This document shows, piece by piece, positions 17,015-60,949 of a DNA stretch of 64,000 bases. Location of the stretch: assembly GCF_963921235.1 (NCBI RefSeq), contig NC_086097.1, forward strand, positions 31,312,001 through 31,376,000. The letters are read 5' to 3'. Position 1 is the stretch's first letter; every line of letters starts with the position of its first letter. The notes below the pieces were generated by a model, which searched no databases, was not told where the DNA came from, and worked only from the letters and a program-made list of their open reading frames with translations. The DNA is from Mobula hypostoma. Taxonomy: Eukaryota. Position numbers and translations under genes: made by a program.

Positions 17015-17752
17015 TGACAGAATATAGTATTAACGGTAAGACTCTTGGCAGTGTGGAGGATCAGAGGGATCTTGGAGTCCGAGTCCATAGGACACTCAAG
17101 GCTGCTGCGCAGGTTGACTCTGGTTAAGAAAGCACATGTGCATTGGCCTTCATCAATCATGAGATTGAGTTTAGGAGCCGAGAGGTAATGTTGCAGCTAC
17201 GTCGGACCCTGGTCAGACCCCACTTGGAGTACTGTGCTCAGTTCTGGTCGCCTCACTATAGGAAGGACGTGGAAACCATAGAAAGGGTGCAGAGGAGATT
17301 TACAAGGATGTTGCCTGGATTGGGGAGCATGCGTTATGAGAGCAGATTGAGTGAGCTCAGCCTTTTCTCCTTGGAGCGACAGAGGATGAGAGGTGACCTG
17401 ATAGAGGTGTACAAGATGTTGAGAAGCATTGATCGTGTGGATAGTCAGAGGCTTTTTCCCAGGGCTGAAATGGCTAGCACAAGAGGGCACAGTATTAAGG
17501 TGCTGGGGAGTAGATACAGAGGAGATATCAGGGGTAAGTTGTTTTTTTTACTCAGAGAGTGGTGAGTGCGTGGAATGGGCTGCCAGCGACGGTGTGGAAG
17601 CGGATACAATAGGGTCTTTTAAGAGACTCCTGGGCAGGTATATGGAGCTCAGAAAAATAGAGGGCTATGGCTAACCCTAAGTAATTTCTCAGGCAAGGAC
17701 ATGTTCGGCACAGCTTTGTGGGCCGAAGGGCCTGTATTGTACTGTAGGTTTT
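17015..17752 (+). mobile_element. CR1 3' fragment; its tail resumes at 18582-18601
   Basis: ORF 17143-17565 LVRPHLEYCAQFWSPHYRKD; the TTTCTATG tail is split by the young CR1 insertion. Confidence 0.92.
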
Positions 17753-18581
17753 ACATAGAAAATAGGAAACATAGAAAATAGGTGCAGGAGTAGGCCATTC
17801 GGCCCTTCGAGCCTGCACCGCCATTTATTATGATCATGGCTGATCATCCAACTCAGAACCCCGCCCCAGCCTTCCCCCCATACCCCCTGACCCCCATAGC
17901 CACAAGGGCCATATCTAACTCCCTCTTAAATATAGCCAATGAACTGACCTCAACTGTTTCCTGTGGCAGAGAATTCCACAGATTCACCACACTCTGTGTG
18001 AAGAAGTTTTTCCTAATCTCGGTCCTAAAAGGCTTCCCCTTTATCCTCAAACTGTGGCCCCTCGTTCTGGACTTCCCCAACATCGGGAACAATCTTCCTG
18101 CATCTAGCCTCTCCAATCCCTTTAGGATTTTATACGTTTCAATCAGATCCCCCCTCAATCTTCTAAATTCCAATGAGTACAAGCCCAGTTCATCCAGTCT
18201 TTCTTCATATGAAAGTCCTGCCATCCCAGGAATCAATCTGGTGAACCTTCTTTGTACTCCCTCTATGGCAAGGATGTCTTTCCTCAGATTAGGGGACCAA
18301 AACTGCACACAATACTCCAGGTGTGGTCTCACCAAGGCCTTGTACAACTGCAGTAGTACCTCCCTGCTCCTGTACTCGAATCCTCTCGCTATAAATGCCA
18401 GCATACCATTCGCCTTTTTCACCGCCTGCTGTACCTGCATGCCCACTTTCAATGACTGGTGTATAATGACACCCAGGTCTCATTGCACCTCCCCTTTTCC
18501 TAATCGGCCACCATTCAGATAATAATCTGTTTTCCTATTTTTGCCACCAAAGTGGATAACTTCACATTTATCCACATTAAA
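17753..18581 (-). mobile_element. Young CR1, 5'-truncated
   Basis: ORF 17853-18452 is the CR1 ORF2 C-terminus; near-identical to 50392-51217; short flanking repeat GTTTT. Confidence 0.95.
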
Positions 18582-18606
18582 GTTTTCTATGTTTCTATGT
18601 TACAGT

Positions 18607-18786
18607 GGGGTGCATGGGAGGGGTAGCACCTCTAGATGGGGGGCTTGTCACACACCTTGGAATGTCTCGTCATCTATTGGTCCCCACCGACGCCCAGCTC
18701 TCACCTGTGGCTCCTCATAGCTGTTTGCATGCGACAGTGGCCACATCGGGCAACAGCTTCGACAAGCCAGCTAAACCAGGTGAGGG
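18607..18786 (+). ncRNA. Candidate HDV-like self-cleaving ribozyme at the RTE 5' end (P1 decayed)
   Basis: P1 GGGGTG 18607; P2 CTCTCACCTG 18698-18707 with CAGGTGAGGG 18777-18786; P3 GGC/GCC; L3 begins TCC; P1.1 GG 18748-18749; P4 GCTT/AAGC; catalytic-C candidate 18771 in GCTAAA. Confidence 0.65.
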
Positions 18787-20470
18787 TAGCCAACGGGTCT
18801 GAAACCCTTGGTGAGATAAGAATTTGCTCATCCCAGCATGCGAAGACTACTTCGGTGGATCGGGCGGAGGAAACCCTGGGGGTTCAACAGCTGAGAAGGC
18901 GTTGCAGCAGCGCATTGTGGAGTGTGCAGGGCACGGCAGAGCACTTAGACGCAGTCATCCAATGCAGCCAAGGAAGTTGCCAGAAGTAACGATTCTTCAT
19001 GCCACTGGATCCTGACTTCTGAGGCCGAGTGGGATCATCTCTGTGCAAGGCTTTTCCACTTCAATATCTTTCACACACTGGTTACATTGTGCGATGTTCA
19101 TCTCCCAACTTTCAATTCCAACCAGTCTTCTACAAGTCCTACGGCGATGGGGGAGTGGCGAAGCAACAGGTGGAGGTGACCACTGGGAGTTGTAGTCACA
19201 AACCCGCACGTAGGCTGCCTTTGGACAAGTGGTCGTTCTTCTCTGTACTCAGGGCAGCAGAGGGGTCCGGCAGCACCAATGGCGACTGAGCAGCCCTTTT
19301 CAGGACAGCACTGCTCACCCTTTGATAGGGAGGGGCCTAGAAAAGGTGGTTAATCATTGCCTGCCCTACAGACAGATAACTGGCCAGCTTGCTGCGGCTG
19401 GCAGTTCATCCGCCAATGCAGTTACACTCAAAAGAGAAGAAAGAAACTTCTGTTAGGATCATGGAATGTCCGCACACTCATAGACAGAGAGAACTCAGCA
19501 AGACCCCAAAGAAGAACAGCCCTTGTTGCCAAGGAACTTTCATGCTACAACATCGACATCTCAGTCTTAAGTGAAACCAGGCTTGCGGAGGAAGGATCCC
19601 TGACTGAAACCACCAGTGGCTACACTTTCTTTTGGAAAGGAAAAGCGCAAGATGAAGAGAGGATTCACGGAGTTGGATTTGCAGTCAAGTCCAGCTTCCT
19701 GAAACAACTCTCCGACCTGCCCGTGGGAATCAACGAAAGGCTTAGGGGGCTACATCTGCCCCTCAGCCACAAACGTCACGCAACAGTCATCAGCGCTTAT
19801 GCCCCCACCATGACCAGCAAATACGAGACCACTGAACAGTTCTACGCCGACCTTAGCTCTGTTCTGGGCTCAGTCCCTGTCAACGACAAACTAATCATGC
19901 TCGGTGACTTCAATGCCTGAGTAGGCTGCCACCATAGTCGCTGGGAAGGGGTTCTAGGCAAACATGGTATTGGAGATATGAACAGCAACGGCCTCTTGCT
20001 CCTTAGCAAATGTGCAGAATACAACCTCCTCATCACAAACACAGTGTTCAGGCTGGCGAACAAGTACAAGACAATATGGATGCACCCAAGATCCAAACAT
20101 TGGCACATGATCGACTACATTATATTACGTCGCCGAGACATCCGGGATGTCCTCATCACCAGAGCCATGCGAGGAACGGAGGGCTGGACTGACCATAGGC
20201 TTGTCCGCACCACAGTGAAGCTACATATTGCTCCCCACCATCCCAAGCACCCTAAGTTCATCAGAACAGCTTTTAACATCACCAGACTCCAAGAGCCACT
20301 GTATCTTCGCAAGTTCCAGACCACCCTTGATGAGAAGCTGTCTGCCAAAGGGCCACTAACTGGTGGGCCAACCCAGAAGTGGAATCAGTTTAGAGAGATG
20401 GTGACAGAGACAACAAAATCAGTTCTCGGCCCCAAGAACCGGAACCACCAAGATTGGTTTGACAGTGCCT

Positions 20471-21051
20471 CCTTTCAACACATGATAGCTTTCTCAACTT
20501 TACTGGCTAGGAGAACTATTCGATTGTACTGGAAGGATCCCAATCCACCTACTGTTTTTTTTTTTTGGCTCTTCTCCATTATGTCTTGTTTAAGTTTGGA
20601 GAAAATAAGGAGTCGGACGTTTGATACATCTTTTAAATTTGAGCAAACTTGGCGACCTTTTATTCAATATTTTCATATGATCTAATTCTTTTTACTATTC
20701 CAGTTAATTTTTTTTTCCGCGAAGTTTTAGATTTGATCAGAAGGATTTTCCCTTTTTTTTTTAAACTGTATCCTCAAAATGGACTGCCCAGTCCCTTTTT
20801 TTTGTTTTGGGTTAGTTTAGTGGGGTTTTTTTTCCTCAATAACAGGAACTCTTGAGTCTTTTTTTCTATGAACTGTTAAGAGGAAAAGTGGTTCTCTTGT
20901 CTCTTTATATTAGCTTAATACTATATATGATTTTGACAGTGTATATTCCTTTCTCTGTTTGTACTGTTATTGATATATGTATTTGAGATAACCTCTCCTC
21001 TGGTTTGTATTTATCCTTATTCTTTTAAATCAATAAAAAAAAGATTGAAAG
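20471..21051 (+). mobile_element. L1-clade LINE 3' end inserted into RTE-1
   Basis: IAFSTLLARRTIRLYWKDPNPPT..WL..IMSCLSLEKIR..TWRPFIQYF resembles a fish L1 ORF2 C-terminus; T-rich 3' UTR with AATAAA; flanked by TGACAGTGCCT. Confidence 0.85.
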
Positions 21052-24000
21052 GAGAATGACAGTGCCTTCAAAGATCTCCTGGCCAGGAAGAAAACAGCAT
21101 TCATGGAGTGGCAAAACGACCCAAGCTCCATTCCCAAAAAAGAGCGGTTCAAGTCCCTTCAGGCCCATACCCAACGGGAAATTCGCAAGATGCATGACCT
21201 GTGGTGGGATAGGAAAGCTGAAGAGGTGCAATGCTTCACCGACATCAACAACTCGAAGCTGCTCTTCAACTCCATCAAGATGATCTTCAGCCCCTCAAGA
21301 TCTGGCTCACCTCCACTGTTGTCCGCTAATGGAACCACACTGCTAAAGGACCAAGAGAGCATCCAACACAGATGGAAAGAGCATATCAGCCAGCTCCTGA
21401 ACCGCCCTTCATCGGTCAACCAGTCTGCTCTGGACCAAGTCCCCCAACAGCCTATTCACGAGGAACTAGATGATCCTCCCTCAACAGATGAAGTCAAGAA
21501 GGCTATCATGCAGATGAGCAATGGCAAGGCGCCCGGCAAGGATGGAATACCTGCTGAACTGTACAAGGCACTCAGCAAGGAATCACTTGAGGATTTCCAC
21601 AGCACACTGACTAGCATTTGGGAAGAAGAAGAGATGCCCCCTGACCTAAGAGATGCAACGATAATCGCCCTCTACCAAAATAAAGGTTCAAGGACCCACT
21701 GCGGGAACTACAGAGGCATCTCACTACTTTCCATTGCCGGAAAAATCCTCGCCCGCATCATCCTCAACAGACTGATTCCAACAGTGTCAAAACAGAACGT
21801 TCCTGAGTCGCAATGTGGCTTTCGTCCCGAACACAGCACTGTCAACATGATCTTCGCAGTGAGACAGATACAGGAGAAGTGCCTGGAACAGAACATGACA
21901 TTATATTCTGTCTTCATTGATTTGACGAAGGCATTTGACATGATCAACAGAAATGCGCTGTGGATCCTCAGAAAGCTTGGCTGCCCGCAGAAATTCACTA
22001 CACTCACCCGCCTGCTCCACGATGGCATGACAGGAGAAGTGTTCTCAGATGGTTCCCCATCTGAGACTTTCAACATCTCAAATAGCGTGAAGCAAGGGTG
22101 CGTTCTAGCACCAGTGCTCTTCAACCTCTTCTTCACCCAAGTGCTGAAGCATGCTGTTAAGGACCTAGACCTGGGTACTTACATAAGATATCGCCTAGAT
22201 GAATCAATGTTTGACCTGAGACGCCTTGCTGCAAAGACCAAAACATTGAGGAGGCTCATCACTGAAGCCCTGTTTGCTGATGACTGTGCCCTCATGGCCC
22301 ACCAGCAGAACCACCTGCAGACGATTGTTGACAAGTTCTCCGCAGCCTCAAAGCTGTTCAACCTGACATCAGCCTCGGTAAGACAGAAGTTCTCCTGCAA
22401 CCTGCACCAAACAGTCACCCTCGTCAGCCATGCATCACCATCGACGGCACTGTCCTGAAGAATGTGAAGAGCTTCAAGTATCTAGGAAGCACCATCTCCA
22501 GTGACGGATCCATTGACAAAGAGATCATAGCAAGGATCCAGAAAGCCAGCCAGGCACTCGGGAAACTCCGTGTCAAAGTTCTGGAGCACAAGGACATTCA
22601 GCTTTCAACCAAGCTCAAGGTGTACAAGGCTGTGGTCCTCACCTCTCTCCTGTACGGCTGTGAAACCTGGACCCTGTACTGCAGGCACATCAAACAGCTG
22701 GAGCAGTTTCACATGCACTCTCTGCGGTCAATCATGAGGATTTGATGGCAGGACCGAATCACCAACCAGGAAGTCCTTGACAAAGCTAACAGCATAAGCA
22801 TTGAGGCAAGGATCCTGCAGGCCCAGCTACACTGGACTGGCCATGTAATCCACATGGGTGAAACAAGGATCCCCAGGCAGCTGCTCTACGGTGAGCTTGA
22901 GCATGGCAGTCGCAATCAGGGACGCCCCAAAAAAAGATTCAAAGACAATCTGAAATCGTACATCAAATGGGCAGACCTCCAGCCTCGACAGCTTGAGGAG
23001 TCCGCCGCCAACAGGGCTGCGTGGCACGCCCTAACCAGAAAAGCTGCATCTGACTTTGAGGATGACCGAAATCAGCACCTTGCAGCAGCACGAGACCGAT
23101 GCCACAAAGCTGTGTATGCACCTGTTGTAATAGCCACCATTCCATGTCCAACCTGCAACCACACGTGTGCTTCGGCCTTCGGCCTCCGAAGCCACATGAA
23201 TATCCACAGATGGCTGCACAATATTCAGTCTTCCTCGGACCCTGAGAGACAACCACTACCATGTTATAGTAGATGGCACAAAGGGGATTAGGCAGAAAAC
23301 CAGGCCAGCATGGATTAGATGGGCCAAAGGACCTGCTTCTGTGACTATATCAGTCAACCTTTAGAAAAATAAACAGAGCAGGTGATGAAAGTGTCGACAT
23401 GGGAACACATTGGAACAATAACTAATTCCACAAATTTCAAGGTAGTTATGGAAAAGAATAAGATTGGTTCCCAAGTTAAGGACCTGAACTGGGGGAAGGC
23501 TGACTCCAACAACATAAGAGGGGACATGTGCAAGTAGGATGTGAGCAGATGCTCATGGGCCAAATGACAGCTGATAAGTGGGAGTCAGAAACAGTATGCT
23601 CTGGTTAAATGTGAAAGGCAAGTAGCAAGATCAGGGAACCTCTTAATTCAAAATATTGGTGAAATCAGAAAGTCACTTTGTCCAAGAGACACTTAAACAA
23701 GCAAGGCATGGAAGGATGCCGTGTTAATGCATGCAAATGGATATATCGTGGATGGGAGAAAGGTCCATGTTGCTGTGCCGTCTGACCCAGACTACTAATT
23801 CCTCCAGTATGCCTTCACTGCAGTACTTCAACACCACTGCACAGGGAGTAGAAGCTCACGTGCTCTTTGGCTGGAGCAGTGGAGGCAAGAGCCCATCCTG
23901 ACACCGAAAGGGGAAAAGCTGGGGCAGTAGTGGTGGCTCTTGCAGGGGTGGGCAGGTGTGTTATTGTGATGTTGGAGTCATGTCCTCCTGTCCAGTGGGG

Positions 24001-55435: not shown

Positions 55436-55832
55436 AGATAGATAGATACCTTATTGATCCCAAAGGGAGTTACAATGTCACAGTAGCATTACAAGTACAC
55501 AGATATACAAGTATACAAATACTAGAAGAGAAGTAAGAAAGAATAAAAAGTTAGTTACCTTAAACAGTTATCTTCAACACAAGAGGGTCACCATTTCCCC
55601 AGCTGTAGGTTGACTCATTATAAAGTCTCATGGCCGAGGGTGAGAACAACCTCATATAGAGCTCCTCAGATCAGTGCAGTTGTCTTTGTCTACTACTGAA
55701 AGTGCTCCCCTGTTCAGCCAAGGTGGCATGCAGAGGGCAAGAAACATTGTCCAGAATTGCCAGGATTTTCCATAGGATCCTTCGTTCTATCACATCACAG
55801 CCAGCCTTTATAATCAGTTTATTGAGCCTGTT

Positions 55833-58800
55833 CTCCTACAAAATCCTACCTTGGCGCTTCACAGTGGCGTAGGAATGATACTGGCTGAACATCAGCGAAG
55901 TACGGCGGAGATTCGTTCTCTGGCAGGTCTAACCTAGCGTGAAGGTGACGTTCTGTCGGCATCAGATTTGGAAGCCCAGAGAGACTGTATGGTGGGGGCA
56001 CGACACCATCTGTCTTATTACTGTGCAAGGCGTGTTGGAGTAGAGTTTCTGAATGGCGTGGAAAGCCCTGTGGCAATGGAGGCCATGTGAAGGCAGCAGG
56101 CTTGAGGAGCTGGAAGCTGCTAGCATGAACTCTGCACATAGGCGGCTCACATAAGATGGTCGCTGCCTTGTTGAGTTTTCTGAGCAACAACAGGGTTGAG
56201 GCAGCTACGTGAGTGTCCGGGCAGCCCTTTTTAGGAATAGCACTGCCCACCCTGGAAGGGGAAGCCACTAGAAAAGGTGGGGTAAAGAAAGCTTGCTCAG
56301 ATTTCACCTGGCTGGCTCACCGCAGCCAACGGGTCTTCACCACTGCGCTAAGAAGTTTAAGAAGATGAAATTGATTGTTGCCACATGGAATGTGCGAACA
56401 ATGCTGGATAACGACTCAAGACCGGAAAGGAGAACTGCTTTGACAGCTAAGGAATTGGCAAGATACAAGATTGATATTGCTGCATGCCAAGAGACAAGGA
56501 TTGAAGGACAAGGTCAGATCCAAGAAAATTCTCATACTTTCTTTTGGATTGGGAAAACCAACGAAAGGAGAGATGCAGGTGTAGCCTTTGCTATTTCCAA
56601 CAAGATTGCTAGTAAATCGCCAACACTTCTGATAGGGATATCTGAAAGGATCATGCAACTACGTGTTCCCATGGGAAAGAATCGTTTCCTGAGTTTGATC
56701 AATGCGTATGCACCAACCATGGCATATTCTGACGAAGACAAGAAGTCCTTCTATCAGGAACTGGCTGAAGTAACTGATAATATCCCTAGGGCAGACAAGT
56801 TGCTCATCTTGGGAGATTTCAATGCCAGGGTAGGCATGAATCACAGTACCTATGAAGGCGTCATTGGCAAATTTGGTCAAGGCAGAAAGAACACCAGTGG
56901 TGACCTTATGCTAAACTTCTGCGTTCAGAAGAAATTGGGTATTACCAACACTTTCTTTTGTCAACCCGAGAAGAACTACTTCACCTGGATGCACCCAAGG
57001 TCAAAGCATCTCTATTTGCTTGACTACGTTGTGATTCGCACAGCAGATATGCCGGAGGTTCTATCGACATAAGGAATGCATGGAGCAGAGTGCTCACTTG
57101 ATCATTACATGGTACGATCACAACTTAGACTTAAACTGCTGCTGCCAAGGCGAAAAACACCCAGTGCAGCACCCAAGAAGTTGGATGTCAACAAGTTGAC
57201 CAGTGAGGAATATCAGAGGAGACTTGTCACAGCATTGACATTATCTCTCCAAGAAGACAAAGACCCTCTCAATGACCCAACCAATACTGAAGAATGCTGG
57301 AAGCAGCTCAAGAAAACCATCCATTCAACTGCAAGTGCGGTGTTTGGTCACCCTAAGAGTAAAACTCCTGATTGGTTTCAAGAACAGAATGATTCAATTC
57401 CAGAACTGTTGGAGATGAAACAAAGGCTTTATATGTGTCACTTGAAAGAGAACTCTGAAAGAAGCAAAGCAGCATTTAAGGCCGTGAAAGCCAAAGTTCA
57501 AAGGGAGATCAGGGCTATGAAGACCAACTGGTGGAATAAGAAAGCAGAAGAACTGCAAACAATGTCAGACAGGAATGACTACCATGGGCTCTTCTCAGGA
57601 CTGAAAGCTACCTATGGTCCAAGAAGCAATACAGTGACCCCAGTAAAAACTGCAAATGGGAGCAATCTATGCATTGACAGGAAAGACATCATTGAGCGAT
57701 GGAAAGAACACTTCTGTAACCTTATAAACCAACAAGGTGCGGCTGACCTCAATGCATGTAAAAGGCTCACAACTAGACTGGTAAGAGAAGAGCGATGTGG
57801 ACTCATCACTATGACAGAACTTAATAAGGCTTTAGAAGATACCAGAAGTGGTAAAGCACCCGGGCAAGACGGCATTCCATCAGATGTACTGAAGCAAGGT
57901 GGTCCTGCTCTGAAGACTGAACTGTTAAACTTATATAATGCTTGTTGGCAGAGTTGATATCTCCCTCAGGACTTCAAAGATGCGCTGATAGTCACCATCT
58001 ACAAGAAGAAAGGCGACTGTAGTGTTTGTGGAAACCACTGAGGAATCTCCCTTCTGTCCACAGCTGGGAAGATTATGGCGAAGATACTGCTCAGCCGGCT
58101 CAAGATCATCTCAGAAGATGTGCTTCCTGAAAGCCAATGTGGCTTTAGGGCTGGAAGAGCAACCACTGACATGATTTTTACTTTGAGGCAACTCCAGGAG
58201 AAGGCGGTAGAACAGCAGCAACCATTGTACATTGTCTTTGTTGATTTCTCAAAAGCATTTGATATGGTGGACAGAGAAACACTCTGGGAAGTGCACAAAA
58301 CTTATGGCTGTCCAGATAGGCTGGTTACGATGATCAAGTTGTTTCATGAGAACATATCTGGCAAAGTATCTATTGGAGGAGATGTCAGCGAAGACTTCAC
58401 CATCAACCACGGGGTAAAACAGGAAGCGTTCCTGCTCCAACTTTGTTTACACTATATCTTGCTGCAGTTTTGGAAATAATGGACCATAATTTGGACAAAG
58501 GTGTGTACATCAGGACTCGCTGAGATGGAAAATTGTTCAACCTGTCAAGACTCAAAGCCTCAACCAAATCAAGAGAGAGATGCGTCAGAGAACTTTTGTA
58601 TTTAGACGACTCAGCCCTGGTTGCTACTGATGTTAATGTGATTCAAGAAATTGTAGACCGCTTCTCATTTGTTGCCGCTCTTTCTGGCCTAAGAATCAAT
58701 GTCTCCAAAACCGAACTTCTGTACCAGTCTCCTCCTCTGTGTAGTCCGAGTGAGACCAAACCACCAGTCATATCGATCAATGGGGTAGTGCTGAAATATT

Positions 58801-59590
58801 CTGACTCTTTCACATACTTAGGAAGTGCTGTGACCAACACCAACTCATCAGATCTGGAAGTTGAGAGGAGAATTCAATCAGCTACAAAAGACTTTGGTGC
58901 TTTGCAGAAGCGACTTTGGTCTTGCCACGACATTAAAATGGCAACCAACGTCAAAGTGTATAACACAGGTGTTTTACCATCTCTGCTTCATTCAACTGAA
59001 ACAATGACATTGTATCGGAAGCACATCAAGAAATTGACCAAGACACAACATGGGCATTTAATCAACACAGGCATTTACACTAAATATTACACATCAAGTG
59101 GCAAGAGAGGGTACCGGATGTGGAGGTGCTCAAACGTGCTGGGACAGTCAGTGTAGAATTGCTCATTACAGCTTCTCAGCTACATTGGACTAGTCATGTC
59201 ACAAGAATGAGCGATGATCGTTTACCCAAAGCTGTTTTCTATGGCGAGCTACGTGAAGGAACGAGGAAGCATGGTGGTCAGAAGCTGCCCTACAAAGACG
59301 TGCTCAAGCACCAGATGAAGAACACTGACATGAATGTCAACCCCTGAGACAGAAGAAGTTGGCACTGCATTGTCAATAAGTCAATCACAGCTATCAAGGA
59401 AAAAAGGTAGAAGGAATATGAAGCAGGTCATGAACGCAGACATTCAGTGCTAGACCAGTCAAATCACAAATGCAACCGATGCGGGAGACAGTGCCAATCC
59501 AGTGCTGGTCTTGTGGCTCATAAACGTGCCTGTAGAGACTAAACTCTCAGCACAGTCAACATCGAAATGGATGGACAGCCGAAGAAGAAG
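55833..59590 (+). mobile_element. RTE-clade LINE (RTE-2, a different family), complete ORF span but inactivated
   Basis: Endonuclease ATWNVRTM, CQETRI, LGDFNARVG; RT QCGFRAGR, DFSKAFD, YLDD; CNRCGRQC..GLVAHKRAC; (GAA)n tail; TSD TGAGCCTGTT at 55823-55832 and 59593-59602; inserted into a Rex1-like remnant. Confidence 0.96.
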
Positions 59591-60949
59591 ACTGAGCCTG
59601 TTGGATCACCCATGTTGATGCCATTGCACACCACTGCATAGAAGAATGTACTGGCAGCAACAGACTGGTAGAACATGTGAAGGAGAGGCCTGCATACTCC
59701 ATAGGACCCCAGAGACAGACACATGTTATCCGTTTATTTTCCTGTGATTGGACGTTAGGGAAGCGCGACCCTGCAGGGATCCACTTTAAGTCTCCCTTTA
59801 ATACCAGATGTGTTTACCGTGCTTCTGCATTCAAGGGCATCACTTCCGACAGCCACTTCCCTGAGGAGCTGTAGTAAGACCATGGAGGTGTTTTATCAGA
59901 GGGAAATAAAGTGTCAAAAGGCATGATGTGATGGCTCTAAGCTGGCATTGATTTAACAGTCTGGATTCAAGATTGTTTATTCTCATACTTCAGAACAAAT
60001 ATAAAGGAGAACAAAACCTCCTTTACATTGTTATCCACACAATAGGTTGTTTGATTGTTACTCTAGATCAATGCAACATTAAAAAAAACAATGAGCATAA
60101 AGAACACAATAAAAACCACAAAAAAAGCACCAGTATAAAACAAAGTACAAGTAACTGTTATATACTGTACAGAGAAACACACAGTCGTGATGAAGGGTCT
60201 CAGCCCAAATGTCGACAGTTTACTCTTTTTCTTAGATGCTACGGCCGTTGAATTCCTCCAGCATTTTGAATGTTTTGCTTTGGATCTCCAGCATCGGCAG
60301 ATTTCATGTTTTTAGTATATTGTACACAGACTGATTCTATGTACGAAAAGTGACACTAGGTGATGTGTATATAGTGGTGGTGCGGTGTGCTAATGGGTGG
60401 AGGTGTGGATCAGCCTGACAGCTTGGCAGAAGGACTGTTTTTGAGTCCAGTGGTCCTGGCTTGGATACTCTGTAGCTTCTTCCCTGATGAAAGTGTGATA
60501 AACAGTCCACTAGCAGGGTGGATGGAATCTTTCATGACGTTACTAGCCCTTTTTCCAGCACCTTTCTCTATCTATATCCCTGATGGTGGGTAGGATGGTG
60601 TCAGTGATGCACTGGGCAATTTTAGCTACCTGTTGTAGAGCCCTCCTGTCCACCTATGTTGTAAACACAGATGAAAATTAGTTCATGCTACTGCAAAAGT
60701 ATTGAGTTAACAGATAGGTGAAACAGTGGTGCAGAGTGAAGATGCCTCACTGGGCTGAATTGTGGCCTTTGGTGCAGTATACACGGACTTTGCACGTTCT
60801 CCACATGATCGTACAATTTCCCCGCGACTCTCTGATTTCCTTTCACGTCCCAAAGATGTTCTGGTTTGGATAAGTGGCTCCTGTACATTGCGAGAGTCAA
60901 ATAACCAACTGGGAGTTATACAGCAGGGAATCAGGCCCTTTGGCTCAAC

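Follow-up and report, generated by a model that had tools for sequence, protein, structure and literature searches.

An RTE-like LINE and its insertion site

The window, by which we mean the whole stretch of 64 kb analysed here, comes from the 3.48-Gb assembly of Mobula hypostoma and carries on its + strand, at positions 18607 to 23260, a copy of an RTE-like LINE. The copy belongs to the lineage called A below, and both its 5' and its 3' end were set by comparison with other copies. That the element starts at G18607, directly after a target-site duplication, had been claimed in an earlier note on this DNA, and this is upheld: the left duplication ATGTTACAGT (18597-18606, +) and its imperfect right mate ATGTTATAGT (23261-23270, +) match at 9 of 10 bases, and the duplication is real though it holds one mismatch in its 10 bp. 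At the other end, homology among the other copies stops at window positions 23256-23262, and the LINE closes with ...CAACCAC, without an A run. It encodes an endonuclease (Pfam PF03372, 19354-20685, +) and, in frame pieces, a reverse transcriptase (Pfam PF00078, 21049-23291, +). The RTE clade is marked by one long reading frame with an N-terminal apurinic-type endonuclease and a reverse transcriptase, by the lack of a large ORF1 and of a poly(A) tail, and by a length of about 3-4 kb, with which this LINE agrees; the homologues of the reverse transcriptase carry no clade names, and the RTE label follows from the domains, the length and the 3' end.

Other copies of the LINE are 4027-4062 bp long. 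The window copy reaches 4654 bp because of about 589 extra bp at 20463-21051 (+), a segment that is absent from three other copies (L005, L015 and L027), in which element positions 1856 and 2446 are joined directly, and that is presumably a later insertion. The same insert breaks the open reading frame of the window copy.

Several further observations concern the coding part and its neighbourhood. Protein relatives of the reverse transcriptase (window 21049-22458) occur at 57-77% identity in opossum, coral, mantis shrimp, characid and puffer fishes, whelk and amphioxus, a patchy spread which would fit horizontal transfer, a process known for RTE/BovB. The WNVRT motif could be located in 7 of 14 long copies. 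In all 7 the endonuclease-reverse transcriptase frame lacks an AUG from the preceding stop up to the endonuclease domain, and in 5 of these 7 it opens only about 100 nt ahead of that domain; the start region concerned lies at element positions ~750-860, which is ~19354-19470 of the window, and in six other copies. The insertion site itself (17128-18534) consists of fragments of other LINE-like repeats, with open reading frames bearing an LEYC.QFWSP motif on both strands. A second RTE-like LINE lies at 55830-59608 (+); its protein is 35-44% identical to that of the first, its 5' UTR is unrelated, and the window copy lacks about 310 bp between 55953 and 55959 as compared with other copies. No HDV fold was found in the 5' region of this second LINE by the descriptor given below, by eye, or by Rfam at E<=1.

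An HDV-like fold at the first base of the element

All the helices and motifs of the HDV-like ribozyme fold that the earlier note had read at the start of the LINE were found in place, and all of them lie on the + strand. The 5' strand of P1, GGGGTG, occupies 18607-18612, with the predicted cleavage just 5' of G18607. It is followed by J1/2 (18613-18697), a peripheral domain in the form of a long hairpin with its own stems (TAGATG/CATCTA), as noted before, which we measure at 85 nt; its folding energy is -33.9 kcal/mol in a copy whose sequence over this region is identical to the family majority. P2 pairs 18698-18707 with 18777-18786 in 10 bp, one G-U among them. For P3, the previously read GGC (18709-18711) with GCC (18740-18742) can be extended to 4 bp, TGGC at 18708-18711 with GCCA at 18740-18743.

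Between the two strands of P3 lies L3, 28 nt long (18712-18739), which consists of UCCUCAUA (in the family majority UCCUCGUA), a hairpin and a final G. It begins with TCC, and its first 8 nt equal the canonical length of L3. The hairpin inside L3 (18720-18738) has a 5-bp stem, GCTGT (18720-18724) with ACAGT (18734-18738), and a loop of 9 nt that includes GCATGC. Downstream of P3 come a remnant of the P1 3' strand, CATC (18744-18747; CACCCC in the majority), the P1.1 nucleotides GG (18748-18749), whose partners are C18713 and C18714 of L3, the J1.1/4 segment GCAA (18750-18753), which is different in lineages B1 and B2, and the P4 hairpin (18754-18769). The J4/2 segment GCUAAAC (18770-18776) contains, within the GCTAAA located at 18770-18775, the candidate for the catalytic cytosine, C18771.

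The window copy is damaged in this core: besides the P1 remnant, the conserved G of L3 has become A at 18717, and two of the five pairs of P4 are broken, so that three remain. Since it bears several disabling changes, the copy is a decayed relic, and from its sequence it is predicted to be inactive.

The majority sequence of the family

The 5' 300 nt of the element were searched in the assembly that holds the window, which gave 3447 first-look candidates; 40 of them were scored and 30 aligned. In the majority sequence of these 30 lineage-A copies, which differ mostly by CpG decay, P1 has 6 bp, GGGGTG/CACCCC. The P1 3' strand had been called decayed in the window, and it is, CA--TC standing against CACCCC through a 2-nt deletion and a C>T change; P1 complementarity, for which a family consensus had been proposed as the check, is restored in the majority. 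CACCCC is present in 21 of the 30 copies and all six P1 pairs in 19. The majority sequence likewise has G at L3 position 6 and a P4 of 5 bp.

In family numbering, P1 pairs 1-6 with 138-143, J1/2 covers 7-91, P2 pairs 92-101 with 173-182, and P3 pairs 102-105 with 134-137. L3 extends over 106-133, P1.1 joins C107 and C108 to G145 and G144, GCAA takes 146-149, P4 takes 150-165 (pairs 150-154/161-165), and GCUAAAC takes 166-172, position 167 being the catalytic-cytosine candidate that corresponds to C18771 of the window. In the majority sequence P1, P2, P3, P1.1 and P4 thus follow one another in the canonical 5'-3' order of a nested double pseudoknot. Judged by its sequence, L3 is best described as a strand of canonical length, UCCUCGUA, with a helix inserted before the 3' strand of P3 and then a G.

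Lineages with a common core

Contigs of four public runs (four organism codes) were aligned on one copy of the element, and the core, as deeper contig cover spanning element positions 89-196, was found to be 5-20 times deeper than J1/2. The majority letters of these contigs restore the G of L3 and the last C of P1 that are missing from the reference copy. The stretch upstream of the element had no contig cover in the four runs, as expected, because that flank is locus-specific. Loose contig ends revealed a sister sequence with the same core and different surroundings, and a pattern made from it matched 348 places in the genome, versus 1 for the reversed control. In this way further lineages with the common core, B1, B2 and D, were recognised in the same genome. 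The B1 set has 32 rows, of which 12 were chosen from 27 B1-type loci for a likeness to their majority of 80% or more and 20 were added to these; the B2 set has 21 rows, one of which, L092, is actually B1; and the D set has 22 rows, lineage D having given 2182 first-look candidates. With a divergence of about 1-2% by eye, D is the youngest lineage.

Between the A and B majority sequences the 91-column core is 89-91% identical, as against 64-67% for J1/2. Only 10 of the 91 core columns differ among A, B1 and B2. Four of them make up two compensatory pairs, P4 pair 151-164, which goes from G-C to C-G, and the closing pair 114-132 of the L3 hairpin, which goes from G-C to A-U in B2. The other six are unpaired, two at L3 positions 4-5, one in the hairpin loop and three in J1.1/4. 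No one-sided change was found in the 58 helical columns of these three majority sequences, and by our own arithmetic the chance that six single changes all fall on unpaired columns is (33/91)^6, about 0.002. Lineage D adds a change from U-G to U-A in P4 and a C at L3 position 4. The start of L3 accordingly reads UCCUCG in A, UCCAAG in B1 and B2 and UCCCCG in D, with positions 1-3 and 6 fixed while 4-5 vary; the two C of P1.1 and the U...G of L3 are therefore present throughout, save that the window copy is without the G. The segment G-C-U-A-A-A-C of J4/2 is identical in the majority sequences of all four lineages. In J1/2 the mid stem is AGAUG/CAUCU for lineage A and GGUGA/UCACC for B1, while B2 and D both have GGUGG/CCACC. 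As for the hairpin that the earlier note had singled out as unusual, a 28-nt L3 with an internal 5-bp hairpin is kept in all four lineages, with one compensatory change from G-C to A-U, and the short L3 customary in the class is found in none of them. The lineages form a natural mutational series, which comprises L3 positions 4-5, J1.1/4, the P4 pair swap and three solutions for J1/2.

Covariation between lineages

Over the alignment of 105 sequences the covariation score is 0.196 versus 0.131 +/- 0.003 in shuffles, and none of 500 shuffles reaches 0.196; with partners slid along the sequence the scores are 0.041-0.076. Paired cells make up 85.7%, as compared with 34-52% when the partners are slid, and amount to 94.7% in P2 and 95.4% in P3. 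Cells changed on both sides number 313 versus 130 in shuffles, and these 313 go back to a few inherited events and not to hundreds. The signal lies in P4, the L3 hairpin and J1/2, which covary between lineages: the J1/2 stem does so at 4 of 5 pairs, and the closing pair of the L3 hairpin is G-C in 64 cells, A-U in 17 and G-U in 17. By this sequence comparison, the compensatory changes demonstrate P4, the L3 hairpin and J1/2 as RNA helices, which is not a demonstration of catalysis.

P1, P2, P3 and P1.1 show no two-sided change between lineages, either in the majority sequences or in the counts from 105 sequences; being invariant, they are without covariation support. The P1 rows of the 105-sequence table are misaligned for B and D, because MAFFT placed there a second 5' unit which those lineages possess, and P1 was counted apart for A, B1 and B2. 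Within lineage A alone (30 copies) the pair counts equal those of shuffles, since the family is too young, and its alignment is therefore uninformative on structure.

Descriptor matches, Rfam and folding energy

After the candidate had been seen, we wrote a strict HDV-type descriptor, which demands G at +1, a 6-bp P1 followed by GG and directly preceded by a Watson-Crick P3 of 3-4 bp, an L3 of 6-30 nt with CC at positions 2-3, a P4 of at least 4 bp, C-[U/G]-A-A in J4/2, and a P2 of at least 6 bp. It has no match in the window on both strands (128 kb) or in 88.8 kb of unrelated flanks, 217 kb in total. On random sequence, generated by a first-order Markov model trained on the family's own 5' 200 nt, it finds 49 start sites in 5.8 Mb, about 8 per Mb. 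In the family, 18 of 22 lineage-D copies pass it. Of the 30 lineage-A copies 8 do so, 7 from the first base of the element and one (L008) from an additional unit upstream.

The earlier note had supposed that standard models would miss the fold, and so they do. Neither the window copy nor the less decayed copy L011 gives a match at E<=10 in Rfam, where window positions 18300-19100 and L011 return chance lncRNA and snoRNA rows only; the whole 64-kb window has no Rfam match at the gathering score, and a genome-wide search with RF00094 gave none. With insertions of this size and a pseudoknot, the Rfam test is a weak one. For a well-preserved copy (L022, positions 1-190), the nested minimum free energy is no better than that of shuffles, with z = 0.19 and 117 of the 200 shuffles folding equally well.

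5' ends of the copies

The earlier note proposed an element beginning exactly at the cleavage site, with no conserved sequence upstream of it in other copies. The latter part stands, for the copies do not extend into a conserved leader and their flanks are unrelated in all four lineages; the exactness does not hold for 15 of the 30 lineage-A copies, which have 3-17 nt upstream of G1. In these 15 the extra nucleotides exactly repeat the element's own first 9 nt (GGGGTGCAT), 5 of them having 9 nt or more of extra, and 23 of the 30 copies start with GGGG. As far as their sequence tells, the extras are templated by the element and not by a longer leader, and we infer that the reverse transcriptase slipped or jumped templates on the G-runs with which the RNA begins. 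The sharpest 5' ends are those of lineage D, where 12 of 21 copies start exactly at G1 with a first unit GGGGTGTAT, 3 continue upstream and most others are short by 1-4 nt. The predicted cleavage position, i.e. the first nucleotide of P1, coincides with the 5' boundary of the copies, an agreement in position only.

In lineages B and D there are two 5' units, the second one fixed. P1 could be formed as well by the second GGGGTG, which lies 9-10 nt downstream, and in 6 of the 18 passing lineage-D copies it is the only one that passes the descriptor. RNAfold predicts a helix between the second unit and the 3' end of J1/2, 8 bp long in B1; for D the pairing was seen by eye. On this model the pairing would free the terminal unit for P1 and close J1/2 beside P1 and P2. 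In the large HDV-like ribozymes treated in excerpts of PMC4908430 such a closure of J1/2 beside P1/P2 accelerates the reaction, and the same layout is predicted for B and D.

Two variants of the P1 3' strand were met in the runs. One of them, in run X8, is very deep: C>G and C>T changes in 5-8 contigs, at depths of ~5600/8200, at sites L020:1641 and 1643 (element positions 140 and 142), together with several linked changes. The C>G would break a P1 pair and counts against the fold; the variant may be an amplified dead subfamily or a satellite. The other, in run X1, was rejected as a family, as it occurs in 6 places only, which are scattered single copies of A, B and D.

Short non-autonomous derivatives

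Eleven of the 30 lineage-A matches (L002, L003, L007, L009, L014, L018, L022, L023, L025, L026 and L028) are short, internally deleted non-autonomous derivatives, as judged over element positions 1-700. The clearest ones (L007, L009, L014, L026 and L028) begin with the 5' ~486 nt, which include the putative ribozyme, go on with an unrelated insert of ~150 nt and an A run, and end in the final ~42 nt of the LINE, while in L018 the 5' 485 nt are joined almost directly to the LINE tail. By eye the insert seemed tRNA-like, a view which was rejected, ARAGORN finding no tRNA in 6 loci and Rfam nothing. A 5' module common to autonomous and short elements points to the ribozyme block as a part of the LINE system required in cis.

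Discussion

From the sequence comparisons above, the first 182 nt of this LINE family probably encode an HDV-like self-cleaving ribozyme, to which we give a probability of roughly three in four. The element would be transcribed, probably, within longer host or read-through transcripts, and its RNA would fold into the nested double pseudoknot of P1, P2, P3, P1.1 and P4. The cytosine of J4/2 (family position 167) would then catalyse scission just 5' of G1, so that the first base of the cleaved RNA would be the first base of the element, and this RNA would serve as the template for target-primed reverse transcription at new sites. The core carries two peripheral additions, namely the structured J1/2 of 85-98 nt and the 5-bp hairpin at the 3' end of L3, the latter making an internal loop (8 x 1) of L3. 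With respect to the class, the topology and the sequence features, as read here, are those of HDV-like ribozymes, and one customary feature, the short L3, is missing. It is not a new class, because HDV-like ribozymes at the 5' ends of LINEs are established. The structured J1/2 domain is likewise known already, and the unusual part is the 5-bp hairpin in L3; a hairpin or insertion in L3 of HDV-like ribozymes was not found in a narrow phrase search of the open-access literature, and the form with such a hairpin is likely to be a new structural variant.

The same region might instead be a structured 5' UTR element which resembles the HDV fold and does not cleave, the 5' end of the copies being due to transcription initiation at G1. 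Such an element could act in translation, as an internal promoter, or as a site to which the protein of the LINE binds. We consider this rather unlikely, and several facts speak for it: the compensatory changes show helices only, while no variation is seen in those core helices by which the pseudoknot is defined; the insertion in L3 sits in the catalytic core; and Rfam is empty. L3 belongs to the catalytic core of HDV as one of the two strands which build the active site. A further point against the ribozyme is the cleavage-site pair of the fold, which is G-C, the corresponding pair of HDV being a G-U wobble. What a non-cleaving element has to explain, however, is a coincidence of a 6-bp P1 at base 1, a 2-bp P1.1 from L3 positions 2-3, UCC...G in L3, C-U-A-A in J4/2 and a 10-bp P2 in the right order, which arises about 8 times per Mb of matched random sequence, and the constancy, across four lineages, of J4/2 and of L3 positions 1-3 and 6 amid unpaired neighbours that do change. 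On the side of the non-cleaving element, 77 nt of L1Tc are promoter and ribozyme both (PMC3383444 and PMC3185411), so that a 5' block can have other roles.

It is considerably less probable that a once-active ribozyme was crippled by the L3 insertion or by the G1-C pair, the fold being a mere inheritance, and that the 5' end now arises by another route. The ragged 5' ends in half of the lineage-A copies and the tight core geometry for which HDV ribozymes are known would agree with such a loss, but none of the four lineages lacks the hairpin, not even the youngest, D, whose 5' ends are the sharpest, and the closing pair of this hairpin went from G-C to A-U instead of decaying. Chance resemblance in a G+C-rich 5' UTR we regard as very improbable indeed. 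The fold was assembled by hand, J1/2 and L3 being allowed generous lengths, and it has no thermodynamic signal; against this, the descriptor finds 49 sites in 5.8 Mb of random sequence and here matches exactly at base 1, and the core is conserved above its surroundings with compensatory changes.

A separate question is whether the L3 hairpin is a new functional peripheral domain of HDV-like ribozymes and not a tolerated passenger, which we think doubtful. The CATG directly after P1 (18613-18616) is exactly complementary to the CATG in the hairpin loop (18728-18731); these are CAUG at family positions 7-10 and 122-125, and 7-10 reads UAUG in B and D, which still pairs via one wobble. Both sites lie in UGCAUG motifs. 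Judged by sequence, this pair could be a tertiary contact or a protein site. A contact between loop and strand would clamp the top of P1 on the core and so add another 'pinch' to that of the J1/2 helix. Two element RNAs could instead dimerise through GCAUGC of the loop, which is palindromic. If the hairpin is functional, the HDV catalytic core allows a wider range of architectures than the descriptors now in use provide for. In any event the family offers a natural and abundant candidate with a helix in L3, in four lineages and thousands of first-look candidates. If it is active, descriptors and covariance models with a fixed L3 are blind to part of the ribozyme family, and vertebrate genomes may hold many more of its members.

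Comparison with known HDV-like ribozymes

In its core the fold matches HDV itself at UCCUCG of L3, GGGCAAC and GCUAA. With the HDV genomic and antigenomic ribozymes and CPEB3 it shares UCCUCG, GG followed by GCAA, C-U-A-A in J4/2 and a G-rich P1. HDV and CPEB3 differ by the G-U wobble at the cleavage site, a J1/2 of few nt and an L3 of 7-8 nt. Among retroelements, HDV-like ribozymes of the drz-Agam-2 type at the 5' ends of RTE elements are said to have been found by Ruminski et al. in 2011. By analogy, the present fold would probably work like the 5' ribozymes of RTE, R2 and L1Tc elements.

The excerpts of PMC3774820 cite RTE among the elements with HDV-like ribozymes and describe the R2 ribozymes, which likewise process the co-transcript to the 5' end of the element, a processing that would be the same here. 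As in our fold, R2 ribozymes have a P1 of 6-7 bp, a P2 of at least 5 bp, a variable P4 and a conserved U...G in L3, and in silkmoths their J1/2 may reach 216-498 nt (PMC3774820). R2 differs in its site-specific insertion in 28S rDNA and in its different endonuclease, and its L3 keeps the canonical size, with only spacing oddities reported in Nasonia (PMC3774820), whereas L3 has 28 nt here. For L1Tc, excerpts of PMC3185411 and PMC3383444 report in Pr77 an HDV-like fold at the start of a LINE mRNA that is common to non-autonomous derivatives, as it is here; it differs in its minimal form of 77 nt, its trypanosome hosts and the dual promoter role shown there.

In PMC4908430 the class is described as cleaving at the first nucleotide of P1, with a P1 of 6-7 bp and a P2 of about 7 bp that extends up to 12 bp in Agam-2 ribozymes, and a large J1/2 is described to form a helix P1.2 which speeds cleavage by uniting P1 and P2. 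A long structured J1/2 is therefore not unusual in the class (excerpts of PMC4908430 and PMC3774820). The Agam-2 ribozymes also stand at the first base of a LINE with endonuclease and reverse transcriptase, and have a 6-bp P1, a structured J1/2 and an extended P2, of 12 bp there (PMC4908430) and 10 bp here. They differ in their mosquito host and in an L3 that is a hairpin loop of 7-8 nt, whereas L3 of the present fold is an internal loop with a 19-nt hairpin, and the present fold has no match to a sequence model in Rfam. By this analogy, with its structured J1/2 and extended P2, the putative ribozyme of the Mobula LINE most resembles the large Agam-2 type.
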